Below, piece after piece: positions 4,796 through 13,543 of a stretch of 64,000 bases of DNA; the stretch's first letter is position 1; each line of letters opens with the position of its first letter. Location of the stretch: positions 7,857 to 71,856 of the forward strand of contig CAYQPU010000001.1 in assembly GCA_964419615.1 (NCBI GenBank), written 5' to 3'. The stretch comes from an uncultured Methanosarcinales archaeon. GTDB taxonomy: Archaea; Nanobdellota; Nanobdellia; Woesearchaeales; JAGVZT01. A program made the position numbers and the translations under genes. The notes beneath the pieces were generated by a model. The model made no database searches, was not told the origin of the DNA, and worked only from the letters and a program-made list of their open reading frames with translations.

Positions 4796-4903
4796 AGTTC
4801 TTACTCAACTATGCATGGTTTTTTCATTTTTTTTTCTATTTCATTTCAACATAAACAATATTGGTATAGTGTAAGCTATGTTGTTATGATTAGTACAATA
4901 ATT
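4796..4903 (+). repeat. Direct repeat copy 1: 23S 3' terminus (agttcttactcaactatgcatgg) plus about 85 bp of trailer
   Basis: Imperfect direct repeat (roughly 80 percent identity by eye) with 5888-5986; both contain agttcttactcaactatgcatgg, ataaaca(t/a)tattg and agctatgttgt-attattagtacaa. Confidence 0.75.
4819..4837 (+). terminator. T-tracts (TTTTTTcaTTTTTTTTT) immediately after the 23S 3' end; probable rRNA operon terminator
   Basis: Archaeal termination occurs at oligo-T; located directly after helix-1 closing strand. Confidence 0.35.
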
Positions 4904-4954
4904 CCAATTGGAACTAAAATTAAATTATATGCAAAAAATAAAAAATTAGAATTG

Positions 4955-5788
4955 TTATCTTAGTTTTTTCTTCTCTTTTTTCTTTGGTAAAAAGTTTTCT
5001 TTAGAAATAGTTGATTTTCCTAAACGTTTTTCAACGCTTTTTCTTGCGTCATTTGCAGCTTCTCCACCTTCTTTAGCAGAATCTTTGCATTCACCAAATC
5101 CTTGAGAATTTCTATCTTTTGTAATTTCAGTAGTTGTCTTTTCTCCAAGCATAGTAAATATTAACTCTAAATCAGTCATATGATCCCTTAAATTTTGGTT
5201 TTTCTTTTGTAGTCGCTTGAATTCTTTATACTCTCCCACTGTTTTTCCAAATGTTGCTTTACTAATCTCATTTGTTAATATTGCAAATTCTTTTTCTGTT
5301 TTGATATCCCTATTTTCCCATTCGTCAGTCAATTCTTGTCTTACAGAAATTCCTCTTAGTCTTTTGTCAATCCACTCTTTAGGATAACCTTTGAGTTCAT
5401 AGTATTCTTTTATTCTATTTTGTCCAATTTCTGGATTTTCAATTTCTTCAATTCTTTCATATCCTACTTGTGCTAACCATTGTTTGAATGGTTCTGCTTT
5501 CGGAGAGGGTATTGCTTGTATTAGTCGAAAAATCTCTTTAGTGTTTCCTACATCTGTTAGTCGCATTTTACCATCAGGAGCAGACATTTTCAAAGCGTTA
5601 CAATTTGTAACGGTTTCATTTCCTTCATCTTTTAATCTTTTTTTGAGAACTCTCCAATAAATTTGAGGGTTATCACTTTCAGTTAAAACAGCTATGATGT
5701 CAACTATAGAGAAATACCATTCATCATTATTCCAGATTCGTCTTATTTTCTTGTCTTGAAAGACAACAAGTTTATTATTTTCTTCCAT
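4955..5788 (-). CDS. Bro-N domain / DinD-like (DNA-damage-inducible protein D family) protein, MGE-associated
   Basis: N-terminal Bro-N-like block (VVFQDKKIRRIWNNDEWYFSIVDIIAVL); C-terminal block KKNQNLRDHMTDLELIFTML resembles the DinD family; K-rich tail. Confidence 0.55.
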   Translation of the reverse strand: MEENNKLVVFQDKKIRRIWNNDEWYFSIVDIIAVLTESDNPQIYWRVLKKRLKDEGNETVTNCNALKMSAPDGKMRLTDVGNTKEIFRLIQAIPSPKAEPFKQWLAQVGYERIEEIENPEIGQNRIKEYYELKGYPKEWIDKRLRGISVRQELTDEWENRDIKTEKEFAILTNEISKATFGKTVGEYKEFKRLQKKNQNLRDHMTDLELIFTMLGEKTTTEITKDRNSQGFGECKDSAKEGGEAANDARKSVEKRLGKSTISKENFLPKKKEKKKLR

Positions 5789-5887
5789 TTATAAAGGAAT
5801 AAATTATTTATCTTTAAATACTCTACGTCAAAATGTCCAGTGGATAAACAAAACAACTAGAATCAACCGCAAAGGCCAGTTCCTAAC

Positions 5888-5986
5888 AGTTCTTACTCAA
5901 CTATGCATGGCTTTTTATTTTTTATTAATTTTCTACATAAACATTATTGACATAATGAGAGCTATGTTGTCATTATTAGTACAACA
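5888..5986 (+). repeat. Direct repeat copy 2 (duplicate of 23S 3' terminus plus trailer)
   Basis: See copy 1; the two copies bracket the DinD-like gene. Confidence 0.75.
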
Positions 5987-6083
5987 AAGATTATTATCTT
6001 AGAAGGAATTTATGTAATTAAAAATCAAAATTGTCAGAATTAATATAAATAGAATTTAATTCCCATAATTAAGGGGTTATTGA

Positions 6084-6803
6084 ATGAACAATAAAAAGGA
6101 AAGGCCATTTACAGAAATACTGTCAGAGATTGCAGAATATGAAGATGGAAATGTACTGCTGGCAGAGATACTTCAAGAGATCGGTAAGCATGATAATCAA
6201 AGAGTACTCAAAAAAATAGGCTTAAAAAATTGGTTCAAAGATCCTAAGAAATCCTATAAAGCATATTTTACCAGTCAGGATCAGTTAAAGGGGGATGTGG
6301 AAAAACTGTTAGTGGCCAATTCATCTATTGATAAAGTGTGCGAAGATCTGGAAGGATTGGAACATGAAGAACACTTCAAATACGGGAGTGTTAAGACCAC
6401 TTTTCCAGGTAGAATACTTATTCCCAATATTGGATGGATACCAGTTAATAGCGAGGCACATATTATACTAAGTAAAAGCTATAGAGAATGGTCAGAAAAA
6501 CCTATTGATATTGATGAACTTAAATTTGAATTAAATCCTTCTCAACTTTATGAAAAGATTGCTCAACATAGATTTAGTATGGGTTCGTGGATTGATGATC
6601 CGGGTTATGAAAGCGAATTACTTGATACAGTTGAAAGTGCATTGAAGTTAGATTATTTGCTTTTAGTGGATGAATATAAAGGTAAGCTTAGTAAACAAGT
6701 AGAAAAGTCTATCAGAATATATGATGTATATGCTTCAGATATGAAAATAACACAAGGTGGGAGATTGGTAAATTTAACCTCTAAATTTGTTGATTCTACA
6801 TAA
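6084..6803 (+). CDS. Hypothetical protein (orphan A), no recognisable domain
   Basis: 239-aa ORF with good coding appearance; first of three co-directional orphan genes. Confidence 0.5.
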   Translation: MNNKKERPFTEILSEIAEYEDGNVLLAEILQEIGKHDNQRVLKKIGLKNWFKDPKKSYKAYFTSQDQLKGDVEKLLVANSSIDKVCEDLEGLEHEEHFKYGSVKTTFPGRILIPNIGWIPVNSEAHIILSKSYREWSEKPIDIDELKFELNPSQLYEKIAQHRFSMGSWIDDPGYESELLDTVESALKLDYLLLVDEYKGKLSKQVEKSIRIYDVYASDMKITQGGRLVNLTSKFVDST

Positions 6804-6942
6804 AAATGCAATCAAGAAGATGATGTTGTTATGTTCTCTACAACAAAAGTTTATATACTAGTTACCACTCTTAAATAACAAATAATCGAAAGATTTATAT
6901 AGATGTAAATAAATCTTTAATGTAACAATTGGGGGTATTAGA

Positions 6943-12105: not shown

Positions 12106-12224
12106 TATGTATGCTTTTTATGTGCTATATATATAAAATTTTCTTTTTCTAACATAAAAATTGACACCAATAATTACTACTCTAAAGAGAAAAATATAAA
12201 TATATTATTACTTAATTTATTTTT

Positions 12225-12413
12225 ATGACCGGAATAAAATTCCAACCCATTCTGGATGAAATTGGTGGGAATTCTATTAGATTTGATAAGCTATTGCAAG
12301 AGATTATTGATTTTGGTGAGTCAAGAGCTTATGATGGGATTTGGTATTGTGGGCATAATTTGGGTATAATAAGTAAAGAAAATCTGCTGCTCGGAGCTTA
12401 TCCCTCCGCCTAA
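12225..12413 (+). CDS. Small hypothetical ORF whose 3' end is altered by a 172-bp insertion
   Basis: Ancestral end would be ...IISKENL* (aagtaaagaaaatctgTAA is intact at 12559-12578); insertion extends reading frame into GC-rich element. Confidence 0.3.
   Translation: MTGIKFQPILDEIGGNSIRFDKLLQEIIDFGESRAYDGIWYCGHNLGIISKENLLLGAYPSA
12370..12386. repeat. 17-bp direct repeat taagtaaagaaaatctg (left copy) flanking GC-rich insertion
   Basis: Perfect 17/17 match with 12559-12575. Confidence 0.85.
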
Positions 12414-12558
12414 ATGTCGGGACTTCTCGTCCCGAGCATCGTCAGAAATTTACAATTTCTGAGAGGCGGGGGCTTTTACGCTCCTCACTTCAACACGCAG
12501 ATTTTCAGACTTAAAAGTCCTCGCCCTGAAGGGCGGGGCTTTAGACCCACGGACATTT
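12387..12558. mobile_element. GC-rich 172-bp structured insertion (MITE-like element or inserted small-RNA gene)
   Basis: Flanked by perfect 17-bp direct repeats. Nested hairpins: ccgcc[...gtcgggacTTCTCgtcccga...tcagaaattTACaatttctga...]ggcgg. Internal repeat GCGGGGCTTT(T/A) occurs twice. Visibly GC-richer than the surrounding AT-rich sequence. Confidence 0.4.
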
Positions 12559-12575
12559 TAAGTAAAGAAAATCTG
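12559..12575. repeat. 17-bp direct repeat (right copy)
   Basis: Perfect match with 12370-12386. Confidence 0.85.
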
Positions 12576-12636
12576 TAACAAAAGATTTATATATAACCGC
12601 GATTGAGGTTATAATAACCACAATTAAGGTAATAAA

Positions 12637-13143
12637 ATGAACTTACTAAGATTTTTGAAAAACAATAAAAAAGCAAGAAAGATTTTTGGAAAGAGAGAAT
12701 TAAGAATAATTGAGAAGCAGTTGTTAGGAGTTAACCTAACACAATCAGAAAAGAACAGATTATCTCGAGATATAAGGAAAAAATTTGAATTTATTAAGCA
12801 AACTGCAAAATTCCAAGATGAATTCAAATTAAAAAAAGGAAAGATTATAGACCAAATAATAAATCAAGCAATAAAATCAATTCTACAAGAAACAAAAGAT
12901 GTTAAAAAAATACATTTATTTGGATCTGCAGCAGACAAAACCCTTCATTTGAATTCAGATATTGATTTGGCTGTTGAATTTGACAATATCAGCTTAAAAA
13001 AAGCTACTTTGTTTAAGAAAAGAATCCTTGGACAGGTAGATAAAAAAGTGGATATACTGGTTTTCGAATATCTTCCGGAAAAGATAAAACAAGAGATAAA
13101 AACAAAAGGAAAACTGATCTATCTGAATGAGAATAAAAGATAA
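12637..13143 (+). CDS. mntA: Nucleotidyltransferase (MNT/MntA-type) antitoxin with N-terminal extension
   Basis: Motif HLFGSAADKTLHLNSDIDLAVEF (GS...D.D minimal nucleotidyltransferase); overlaps downstream HEPN gene by 17 nt. Confidence 0.7.
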   Translation: MNLLRFLKNNKKARKIFGKRELRIIEKQLLGVNLTQSEKNRLSRDIRKKFEFIKQTAKFQDEFKLKKGKIIDQIINQAIKSILQETKDVKKIHLFGSAADKTLHLNSDIDLAVEFDNISLKKATLFKKRILGQVDKKVDILVFEYLPEKIKQEIKTKGKLIYLNENKR

Positions 13144-13543
13144 GATTGAGCAGATTAAAAGATATTTAGATGAATTAGAACAGATTTCTCCGAATAATTT
13201 TGAGGATTATGACATAAAAACTTGTGCTGCATGTGAAAGATACTTTGAAAAAATTGTTGAGGCAGCAGTTGATTTGAGTTATCTTGTAATTAAGAAAAAT
13301 CAATTTAAGGTTCCAGAAGAGGCTAATGAAGCCTTTGACATCTTAGTTAAGGAAAAAATTATTTCAAAAGAATTAGCAACTAGATTAAAAGAAGCTAAAG
13401 GAATGAGAAATCTTATCTCTCATCAGTATGGAAACATAGATGACAAAATTGTGTTTAAATCAATAACAGAAGAATTACCAACAGACATAAAGAATTATAT
13501 CAATATAATAAAAACAAAATTTAACAGAGAATATCTATACTGA
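13127..13543 (+). CDS. hepT: HepT-type HEPN toxin (DUF86)
   Basis: C-terminal RNLISHQYGNID (R-x4-H-x-Y HEPN motif) and size of about 138 aa; paired with MNT gene. Confidence 0.75.
   Translation: MRIKDKIEQIKRYLDELEQISPNNFEDYDIKTCAACERYFEKIVEAAVDLSYLVIKKNQFKVPEEANEAFDILVKEKIISKELATRLKEAKGMRNLISHQYGNIDDKIVFKSITEELPTDIKNYINIIKTKFNREYLY

Follow-up and report, generated by a model that had tools for sequence, protein, structure and literature searches.

What is the accessory DNA that lies directly downstream of the rRNA operon in this tiny DPANN/Woesearchaeota-like archaeon: one decayed mobile element or a mixture of unrelated parts? Within the window, the whole 64,000-nt stretch of DNA analyzed here, positions 4796–13543 had been interpreted in a sequence-only reading as a decayed provirus or plasmid remnant or as a hotspot for insertions. 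The underlying gene inventory is real (a Bro-N/DinD-like gene, three soluble orphans, three membrane proteins, a GC-rich insert, and an MNT/HepT pair), and the reported lack of an integrase is borne out, with no integrase, recombinase, or transposase found across 4.8–21.8 kb. However, the idea of a single decayed element fails for the bulk of the stretch, where the gene order recurs in a relative (L016) and the composition is native. We consider it likely that the region is instead a composite, in which a native, fast-evolving gene block carries three small independent insertions; as part of that same judgment, the core of the block (6084–12105, resumed at 13715–15607) would be chromosomal, vertically inherited, and rapidly evolving. 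The block is restricted to a narrow group of Woesearchaeota-like DPANN archaea. The proposed insertions are (i) a 0.92-kb Bro-N cassette, (ii) a GC-rich element of ~175 nt, and (iii) a type VII HepT/MNT pair. The hotspot reading is right in a limited sense, given these three small and mutually unrelated insertions.

The core module begins with the three previously described orphans, forward-strand genes whose products lack transmembrane (TM) segments and family matches. The first, a 239-aa soluble orphan (6084–6803), has no detectable homologue in Pfam, PHROGs, NCBIfam, PADLOC, or profile searches, and its position is held in L016 by a paralogue of the 362-aa family. The other two are conserved module members that, like the first, read in the rRNA direction: an acidic soluble protein of 247 aa (6943–7686), with orthologues in L014 (223 aa; BLAST, 8e-12) and L016 (233 aa; profile, 1.4e-7), and a soluble protein of 362 aa (7690–8778), with orthologues in L012, L014, and L016 and only 3 matches in 1.84 billion cluster representatives. 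The AF2 model of the 362-aa protein, the only one attempted for the module, was poor (pLDDT, 59) and gave no fold match. Convergent to these genes, on the reverse strand, are the three proteins correctly described as membrane proteins, all of which carry TM segments. According to BLAST, profile HMMs (5e-14 and 1e-6), and a TM scan, the 551-aa membrane protein (8771–10426) combines, in one fused chain, a 208-like 4-TM domain (residues 1–206), a TM anchor (236–341), and a coiled coil (346–548), parts that are encoded by two or three separate genes in relatives. In the conserved 349-aa protein (10439–11488), an N-terminal TM anchor is followed by a low-complexity linker and then by conserved regions; orthologues are present in L012, L014, L015, L016, and L103. 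A second GC bump at 11.1–11.4 kb, considered as a further insertion, was rejected, as it corresponds to the Gly/Pro/Thr-rich linker of this protein. The best-conserved member, of 208 aa (11479–12105), has a signal peptide and several TM segments, and its family has six members in 5.8 billion proteins (45–64% identity). The convergent set holds two 208-like paralogues, the anchored 349-aa protein, and a TM anchor with a coiled coil.

Searches for a function of the module proteins in Pfam, PHROG, NCBIfam, PADLOC, and the PDB gave no matches. Signal peptides, TM segments, and a coiled coil, together with a linker of low complexity, are envelope-type features, and on this basis the module may encode a cell-envelope complex, possibly one under diversifying selection. 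Its behavior is similar to that of hypervariable surface-protein loci (S-layer, pilin, and O-antigen) in that membrane or secreted proteins diverge far faster than a neighboring housekeeping gene: L103 and L014 share 94.7% identity in the flanking radical-SAM gene, compared with 36–71% in the module proteins. Paralogous duplications and gene fusions or splits are further points of likeness, but the module has no homology to any known surface-structure family and is linked to three soluble proteins and an rRNA operon.

Five other archaeal contigs (L012, L014, L015, L016, and L103) preserve the order of genes inside the module. When synteny was compared, as the sequence-only reading had proposed, the module was found to abut the 23S 3′ end directly in L016, the one relative in which it lies beside the rRNA operon, with the first module gene ~40–60 nt past the 23S rRNA gene. 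The common order in the window and L016 is the 23S rRNA gene, three same-strand soluble genes, convergent membrane genes, and a divergent HTH cluster; in L016, these are genes of 276, 233, and 309 aa, convergent genes of 236, 121, 221, 367, and 195 aa, and divergent genes of 215, 231, 134 (HTH), and 166 aa. L016 is a distant relative (16S, 89.5% identical; 23S, 87.5–88.4%) with a GC content of 41%, and the orthology is backed by BLAST and profile HMMs. The right boundary at 13543 proved arbitrary, since the conserved block runs on past the toxin-antitoxin (TA) pair to ~15.6 kb. This continuation (13715–15607, forward strand) contains genes for 191 aa, a 154-aa AsnC-like HTH protein, 187 aa, and 64 aa, which are family-less or weakly HTH-like (weak Pfam HTH_24 match) and have orthologues in the same order in L015 (46–75% identity) and L016 (24–49%). 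The first clear housekeeping gene after the block is that of ABCE1 (18005–19756). In L014 and L103, the module lies beside the AlaRS and radical-SAM genes, and therefore either the block moved or the genomes were rearranged. An AAA ATPase gene and an Mrr-like nuclease gene are adjacent to the module in relatives, and both are missing in the window.

The composition of the block is likewise native. Tetranucleotide distances for 6–12 kb correspond to z values of −0.5 to 2.1, the GC3 of the module resembles that of ABCE1, SOD, and Prx, and module GC tracks that of the host (38% in L016 and 34% in L014); the tetranucleotide profile deviates at 12–14 kb (z, 3.8), where the TA pair is located. Gene order is thus conserved in a distant relative with native composition, while the proteins are lineage-specific orphans, not homologues of housekeeping proteins. 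The rarity of the module families (3–6 proteins in databases of billions) and their patchiness also fit an accessory or mobile origin. The module could itself be an element, such as a set of archaeal-virus envelope genes, that was integrated or domesticated long ago; it would have been acquired before the split of the window organism and L016 and have moved independently in the L014/L103 lineage. We regard this origin as unlikely: the patchy distribution in differing genomic contexts, the numerous small membrane proteins with paralogous duplications, the ATPase and nuclease that adjoin the module in relatives and are missing here, and a divergence much faster than that of flanking genes would be expected from it, but integrase, att sites, and capsid, portal, and replication hallmarks are all absent, GC is fully ameliorated in three genomes spanning 32–41% GC, and the place beside the 23S rRNA gene is stable across deep divergence.

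The first of the proposed insertions into the native block, the Bro-N/DinD-like single-gene cassette (4924–5842, reverse strand, 0.92 kb), consists of an ORF (4955–5788, 277 aa), a conserved 54-nt leader (5789–5842) with the motif CCACTGGACA and a TATA-like box, and a 3′ tail of up to 30 nt. DNA homology to 40 other loci always ends at ~4924–4960 and ~5842. The protein matches Pfam Bro-N (4e-13) and phrog_15286 (3e-99), has >500 species-level relatives at 57–87% amino acid identity, and is a full-length match (4.7e-122) to the PADLOC model PDC-S13, a candidate defense gene whose role in phage defense has candidate status. Its likeness to Escherichia coli DinD lies in the N-terminal Bro-N domain, with a score of 19.9 bits against the NCBIfam DinD equivalog, far below the cut-off of 242. 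The AF2 model (pLDDT, 79) has a predicted two-domain fold that resembles the DNA-break-binding protein DdrC (Foldseek E value, 8e-6), although the protein is 10–13% identical to Deinococcus DdrC with TM-scores of only 0.33–0.48.

As noted previously, the Bro-N gene is bracketed by duplicated rRNA-trailer sequence. The archaeal 23S rRNA gene (1147–4814, forward strand; Rfam LSU_rRNA_archaea, 2,476 bits) has its 3′ end at 4814, and copy A of the repeat (4793–4905, forward) contains the last ~22 nt of the gene and the trailer; it remains joined to the rRNA and is the functional copy. In copy B (5885–5991, forward), the 23S 3′ end and its trailer occur a second time, displaced to a position upstream of the 239-aa gene. 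The 113-nt repeat is ~80% identical between copies, with an exact 24-nt core representing the 23S 3′ end, and a BLAST comparison of the two 600-nt flanks gave 81.7% identity over 109 nt (E value, 7e-25). Insertion of the cassette at the 23S 3′ end would have been accompanied by a 113-nt target duplication, and therefore copy A would still complete the rRNA and copy B would still precede the downstream genes. Flanking duplications are also found with this gene in other archaea and bacteria (50–240 nt): locus-specific duplications flank Bro-N in 9/66 loci versus 5/211 control positions (Fisher p, 0.001), a count that takes in three orthologous Methanoperedens loci, a tandem paralogue (L042), and a possible dispersed intergenic repeat (L057) and corresponds to about 6–8 independent events. 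In L058, an intact gene 3′ end and its decayed second copy flank Bro-N, and in L086, the second copy is 99% identical. These duplications point to an integrase-free route of insertion with duplication, most likely through single-crossover (Campbell-type) recombination of a circular cassette bearing target homology.

Classically, islands that target tRNA genes integrate into the 3′ end of an RNA gene and restore it, and the 24-nt core, exact in both copies and located at the 23S 3′ end, looks like an att core. The Bro-N gene could accordingly be the last remnant of a larger integrase-borne element, site-specific for this end, with the repeats as attL and attR and the remainder deleted later. 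This appears distinctly improbable for the following reasons: (i) beyond the core, A/B homology extends for ~90 nt at ~78%, which att sites do not need; (ii) only the cassette unit known from the 40 other loci lies between the repeats, with no extra remnant; (iii) rRNA was found within 6 kb in 0/80 other Bro-N loci; (iv) inspection of the gene calls in the two closest relatives showed Bro-N as a lone gene amid unrelated neighborhoods and housekeeping genes, with no integrase; and (v) at other loci, the duplicated segment varies from case to case and is a protein-gene end or a promoter. The locus therefore resembles islands and proviruses in tRNA or tmRNA (rarely rRNA) 3′ ends in its duplicated RNA-gene end, intact on one side and with a displaced partial copy on the other, but differs from them in carrying just one 0.92-kb gene and no integrase, in having an imperfect repeat of 113 nt in place of a short exact att core, and in that the gene is elsewhere flanked by duplications of unrelated targets.

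The GC-rich insertion (~12371–12577), reported previously from the sequence, is confirmed, with 45% GC (0.445–0.455) against ~30% around it. It is a hairpin-rich repeated element of ~175 nt flanked on both sides by a 17-nt direct repeat (TAAGTAAAGAAAATCTG), with fold z scores of −6.3 on the forward and −5.8 on the reverse strand. Two further copies are present in the related genome L015 (93% and 78% identity), one of them within a 615-aa ORF, and the alignment of the copies contains a compensatory stem change; no Rfam family matched. A truncated gene remnant of 62 aa (12225–12413, forward) corresponds to a 108-aa gene in L015, with 53% identity over residues 5–53 only, and would have been cut off upon insertion of this structured, MITE-like element. 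Like MITEs and Rickettsia palindromic elements, it is short, non-coding, strongly structured, present in several copies, and positioned at or within ORFs that it leaves open. Unlike MITEs, it has termini that are direct, not demonstrably inverted, repeats, and only three copies were seen, without a known transposase partner. Alternatively, the copies may represent a family of small-RNA genes.

Adjoining this element is the TA pair, which is present as claimed and is an intact type VII HepT/MNT system: an MNT/MntA-like nucleotidyltransferase antitoxin (12637–13143, forward; Pfam Polbeta, 1.6e-16; NTP_transf_2, 9e-10) and a HepT (HEPN) RNase toxin (13127–13543, forward; Pfam HepT-like, 1.7e-27). 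The assignment agrees with known HEPN-MNT pairs in the HepT_toxin score (NCBIfam, 104 bits; cut-off, 60), the RX4H and GSX10DXD motifs, the upstream position of the antitoxin gene, and the 17-nt overlap, but the MntA score of 54.4 bits is just below the cut-off of 60, and the MNT has an extra N-terminal extension of ~75 aa. The HepT gene has a GC content of 27%, and the pair is absent at the homologous position in L015 and L016. The evidence for the putative Bro-N and TA insertions consists of the repeats and the gene arrangement in distant relatives, and no empty site was recovered for either.

Could all of these parts nevertheless belong to one provirus or plasmid remnant that has lost its integrase? 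Orphans, membrane proteins, Bro-N, and a TA pair are clustered beside an RNA gene with a duplicated 3′ end, and the module families are extremely rare. However, the duplicated trailer encloses the Bro-N cassette only, the entire stretch has no flanking repeats, and the module adjoins the 23S rRNA gene in L016, which has neither the Bro-N gene nor the TA pair. The composition is native, the conserved block overruns the proposed right end, and the homology search turned up neither hallmark families of viruses or plasmids nor, in IMG/VR, anything closely related to the two largest module proteins. A single element is thus very improbable and already largely refuted. The chance that the repeated 24-nt core created these junctions as assembly artefacts is negligible: one JGI contig breaks exactly at the core (window position 4790), but it begins with 23S-type bases (ACCAAAAG) upstream of the core and holds copy A, the Bro-N gene, copy B, and the module contiguously at 100% identity, and ten more contigs from other samples are all collinear. 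Independent JGI and ENA assemblies are collinear and 99.7–100% identical over 4790–17251; therefore, the stretch is not an assembly artefact.

The 23S rRNA gene itself contains an intron of ~720 nt (~3109–3830), based on a gap in the alignment to the L016 23S rRNA gene that falls at 23S position 1962, and the intron carries a LAGLIDADG ORF (3213–3698; Pfam LAGLIDADG_1, 4e-25).

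The window opens with the 3' part of an archaeal 16S rRNA gene (1-736), followed by a spacer tRNA (879-1004) and the 23S rRNA gene (1147-4814), all recognized by Rfam, and its GC content outside the rRNA genes is ~32%. Since the Rfam match to the spacer tRNA (47.8 bits) is 126 nt long, an intron is presumably present in this tRNA; despite that match, ARAGORN called no tRNA in the whole window. The 23S gene is ~720 nt longer than that of a relative, L016 (GCA_964444505.1), owing to an intron at ~3109-3830 (23S position ~1962) that the L016 gene lacks and whose ORF (3213-3698) encodes a LAGLIDADG homing endonuclease (Pfam, 4e-25). 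Several proteins of the window have their nearest named relatives in Candidatus Woesearchaeota and "Nanoarchaeota" MAGs, and the organism is therefore, most likely, a Woesearchaeota-type member of the DPANN archaea. Identical proteins are also encoded on an 81-kb contig at NCBI and on short contigs of several metagenomes in JGI and ENA. The JGI and ENA contigs are 99.7-100% identical to window positions 4790-17251 and collinear with them, and no structural variant of this region was seen among the matching NCBI, JGI, and ENA contigs; this collinearity indicates that the gene arrangement is real.

Directly downstream of the 23S gene, the sequence-only reading had taken positions 4796-13543 to be a decayed integrated element (a provirus or plasmid remnant) or a hotspot for insertions. 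Its inventory of this stretch holds up: a gene for a Bro-N protein (4955-5788, minus strand) is bracketed by ~80% identical duplicates of the rRNA trailer (copy A, 4793-4905; copy B, 5885-5991), and it is followed by three soluble ORFs without a family match in 6084-8778, three ORFs with transmembrane (TM) segments in 8771-12105, a 45% GC segment at ~12.39-12.56 kb, and an overlapping MNT/HepT toxin-antitoxin pair (12637-13543) with intact motifs. An integrase-like gene is indeed absent at 4.8-21.8 kb (Pfam, PHROGs, and NCBIfam). The proposed right boundary at 13543, on the other hand, does not stand, as the ORFs beyond the toxin-antitoxin pair are equally uncharacterized and no clear housekeeping gene appears before ABCE1 at 18005.

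Nor does the idea of a single integrated element survive comparison with L016, where the 23S gene directly adjoins the module of orphan and membrane genes (gap to the first module gene, ~40-60 nt). The order in L016, from the 23S gene through three same-strand genes and convergent membrane genes to a divergent AsnC-like HTH cluster, matches that of the window, and only the Bro-N gene, the GC-rich element, and the toxin-antitoxin pair are absent there. This order is shared at 89.5% 16S and ~88% 23S identity, and the protein-coding regions of L016 have a GC content of ~38%. Past the toxin-antitoxin pair, the genes for a 191-aa, an HTH, a 187-aa, and a 64-aa protein have orthologs in the same order in both L016 and L015, another archaeal contig carrying the module. 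The composition of the core is likewise native: the tetranucleotide distance (z -0.5 to 2.1) and GC3 of the 6-12 kb region resemble those of the remaining window, only the 12-14 kb region deviates (z 3.8), and the GC content of the module tracks that of the host in L016 and L014 (a further archaeal contig with the module). Thus, two of the observations that the sequence-only reading had named as speaking against it, an order conserved in distant relatives and a native composition, were made for the core, and the third, housekeeping homologs for the proteins, was not.

Searches for mobile-element hallmarks gave a similar picture. No ORF at 4.8-21.8 kb matched an integrase, recombinase, or transposase gene or remnant (Pfam, PHROGs, NCBIfam, and PADLOC), no att-type direct repeats surround the whole of 4796-13543, with the sole significant long repeat flanking the Bro-N gene, and the search for viral or plasmid hallmarks returned PHROGs matches for the Bro-N protein only. 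A viral origin of the module found no support in IMG/VR, where neither the 362-aa nor the 551-aa protein has a close relative. We conclude that the stretch consists of native genes that evolve rapidly and are specific to the lineage, a probably envelope-related block with three small mobile or selfish insertions, and that the single "island" is an artifact of the look of orphan-rich DPANN genomes. The case separates native fast-evolving genes from true insertions, and DNA rich in orphan and membrane proteins beside a DPANN rRNA operon should not be labeled a mobile island without synteny evidence.

The core of the module (6084-12105; proteins of 239, 247, 362, 551, 349, and 208 aa) is rare. 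Among 1.84 billion cluster representatives, only three are related to the 362-aa protein, and the 208-aa family counts six members in 5.8 billion proteins. On each of the relatives' contigs, genes similar to those for the 247- and 362-aa proteins converge on coiled-coil, TM-anchor, 208-like, 349-like, and 208-like genes, and profile HMMs identify the 551-aa protein as a fusion of two or three genes that are separate elsewhere. In L014 and L103, the module sits between the AlaRS gene and a radical-SAM gene, away from the rRNA genes. Because of this second location, an old mobile origin of the module retains some probability, although we consider it improbable beside the conserved order and native composition described for the core. 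In L015 (1135-5964) and L016 (3042-7277), the block extends into an AAA ATPase (421-472 aa) and large orphan proteins, and in L015 also into an Mrr-like nuclease; the 64-kb window has no homolog of any of them. A conserved pair of genes, for an MscS/peptidase-C39 protein and a D-tyrosyl-tRNA deacylase (window 39196-41555, L016 464-2774; 56-58% identity), lies ~0.3 kb past the end of the 23S-adjacent block in L016 and ~23 kb past it in the window, a difference showing that the two lineages are separated by large rearrangements or insertions.

No core protein matched a family, defense model, or solved structure in Pfam, PHROGs, NCBIfam, PADLOC, or the PDB; profile searches of PDB sequences with the 208-, 349-, and 362-aa families gave nothing below an E-value of 0.7, and the predicted structure of the 362-aa protein (pLDDT 59; best Foldseek E-value, 0.6) was uninformative. 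Two paralogous module proteins have a cleavable signal peptide, a conserved acidic N-terminal helix, and several TM segments, one protein combines an N-terminal anchor with a low-complexity linker that has grown to NT/GGT repeats in L016, and a TM-anchored coiled coil is also encoded. Between L103 (974-4738) and L014 (4859-9918), the module proteins are 36-71% identical and the flanking radical-SAM gene 94.7%, a difference that suggests either diversifying selection or allele replacement at the module locus. From these sequence features we infer, with modest confidence, that the core could encode a complex of the cell envelope that is under diversifying selection and has the soluble 247- and 362-aa proteins as putative partners in the cytoplasm. 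The cell-cell interface of episymbiotic archaea is poorly understood, and this rare rRNA-adjacent module may encode part of their surface machinery.

The Bro-N gene is the first of the insertions. Its product has >8000 database relatives and is encoded at 57-87% identity in >500 species-representative genomes (DPANN, Methanoperedens, Altiarchaeales, Thermoplasmatota, and many bacteria), a degree of conservation well beyond that of the flanking genes. At the DNA level, homology with other loci invariably covers ~4924-5842, that is, the Bro-N ORF and a 54-nt leader (5789-5842) that holds a CCACTGGACA motif and a TATA-like box. The motif lies ~12-14 nt upstream of the box, is conserved before archaeal Bro-N copies (L019-L056) and missing from bacterial ones, and may represent an operator or a cassette end. 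In the nearest relatives, the Bro-N gene stands alone amid unrelated housekeeping genes; general targeting of rRNA genes was rejected, with an rRNA gene within 6 kb at 0 of 80 loci. The protein contains a Bro-N domain (PF02498, 50.2 bits; cut-off, 25.6) and is a full-length match to PADLOC PDC-S13 (PDLC04920, 4.7e-122, residues 1-275), making the gene a candidate single-gene defense system. It is DinD-like rather than DinD itself, scoring 19.9 bits against the NCBIfam equivalog model of the Escherichia coli protein (NF008573; cut-off, 242), and its confidently predicted structure (pLDDT 79) is similar to that of DdrC, a protein that binds DNA breaks. A literature search for the Bro-N family or PDC-S13 as a studied system found nothing relevant.

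The trailer duplicates around the Bro-N gene (113 nt) are one case of a recurrent pattern. At 9 of 66 loci in other archaea and bacteria, the gene lies between direct repeats (50-238 nt, 75-99% identity) that are specific to the locus, an excess over shifted control positions, of which 5 in 211 are so flanked (p 0.001); the nine include three orthologous Methanoperedens loci, one tandem paralog, and one possible dispersed repeat, leaving ~6-8 independent events. What is duplicated is either the 3' end of a gene or a promoter. In L058 (5817-5964/6875-7019), an E2 acyltransferase gene keeps its 3' end intact in one copy and the second has decayed, in L086 (5859-5984/6850-6975), the two copies are 99% identical and comprise the final 42 codons of a 678-aa gene, and in three Methanoperedens species, the segment comprises the promoter and start of the downstream gene. 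Homology between loci never reaches into the flanking repeats. In the simplest mechanism, a circular cassette bearing target homology would recombine with the chromosome through a single crossover, giving an insertion-duplication for which a dedicated recombinase would not be needed. Alternatively, a long staggered target could be duplicated upon insertion, and the data fit either mechanism. The DdrC-like protein, as a predicted DNA-end-binding protein, might itself take part in insertion.

At the window locus, copies A and B share an exact 24-nt core, the very 3' end of the 23S gene. At ~11% decay per copy, we calculate a chance of ~6-7% that this core would remain unchanged in copy B, and it is therefore no proof of an att core. 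Copy A retains the 23S 3' end, including its strand pairing with the 5' flank, and copy B retains the DNA upstream of the 239-aa gene. The leader-trailer duplex does not single out the native copy, as the shared core lets either copy pair with the 5' flank of the 23S gene, at duplex energies no different from the range of shuffled sequences. Neither empty sites nor further copies were found in the metagenome contigs scanned. A motif, ATGTTGT-N-ACAACAA, occurs in both trailer copies (4878-4901 and 5964-5987) and again after the 239-aa gene (6823-6846), and may be a terminator-like hairpin or regulatory site.

The Bro-N gene is a very widely transferred candidate defense gene found repeatedly between long target duplications, and the PDC-S13 cassette may spread across archaea and bacteria by inserting with a 50-240-bp target duplication. 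If so, the duplication would let it enter gene ends, promoters, and the 23S 3' end without damage, a cheap recombinase-free route for single genes into essential loci. The combined reading, in which the PDC-S13 gene is a self-contained, integrase-free mobile cassette and the module is, separately, a hitherto undescribed apparatus in the envelope of Woesearchaeota-like DPANN archaea, is tentative and rather unlikely to hold in full.

The toxin-antitoxin pair, which resembles type VII HepT/MntA systems, is the second insertion. HepT (13127-13543) exceeds the cut-off of NF047751 (104 bits; cut-off, 60) and has its RX4H motif as RNLISH. MNT (12637-13143) carries the GSX10DXD motif GSAADKTLHLNSDID and scores 54.4 bits against NF047752 (MntA; cut-off, 60), while Pfam Polbeta and NTP_transf_2 exceed their own cut-offs. 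The genes are adjacent and co-oriented, antitoxin first, with a 17-nt overlap. The pair has a GC content of 27%, and no part of the stretch deviates in composition other than the 12-14 kb region that contains it. L015 and L016 both lack it at the corresponding place, which in L015 is occupied by a 145-aa gene and a second 191-like paralog.

The third insertion, the GC-rich element (~12388-12560), is bounded by two copies of TAAGTAAAGAAAATCTG. Three copies are known from two genomes, strongly structured and without a long ORF of their own; the window copy folds far better than shuffled sequences on both strands (z -6.3 and -5.8). No Rfam family was identified (best E-values, 0.24-0.44, far below gathering scores), and the IMG/VR match, of only 19 nt, was dismissed as chance. 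The two L015 copies lie at 2266-2411 and 8969-9187; one is 93% identical and one 78%, and they have modular hairpins. Since they have similar termini, the 17-nt direct repeat bounding the window copy may belong to the element rather than to its target. The first L015 copy lies within an ORF of 615 aa (1135-2982) that stays open, and the similarity of window positions 12414-12578 to that protein reflects the shared element, not a pseudogene fragment as also considered. In the window, the element truncates a gene whose L015 counterpart is 108 aa long. It behaves like a MITE or an in-frame palindromic element. It is also possible that the element is a member of a small-RNA gene family. Among the copies, a compensatory change from CCGCC/GGCGG to CCACC/GGTGG is seen.
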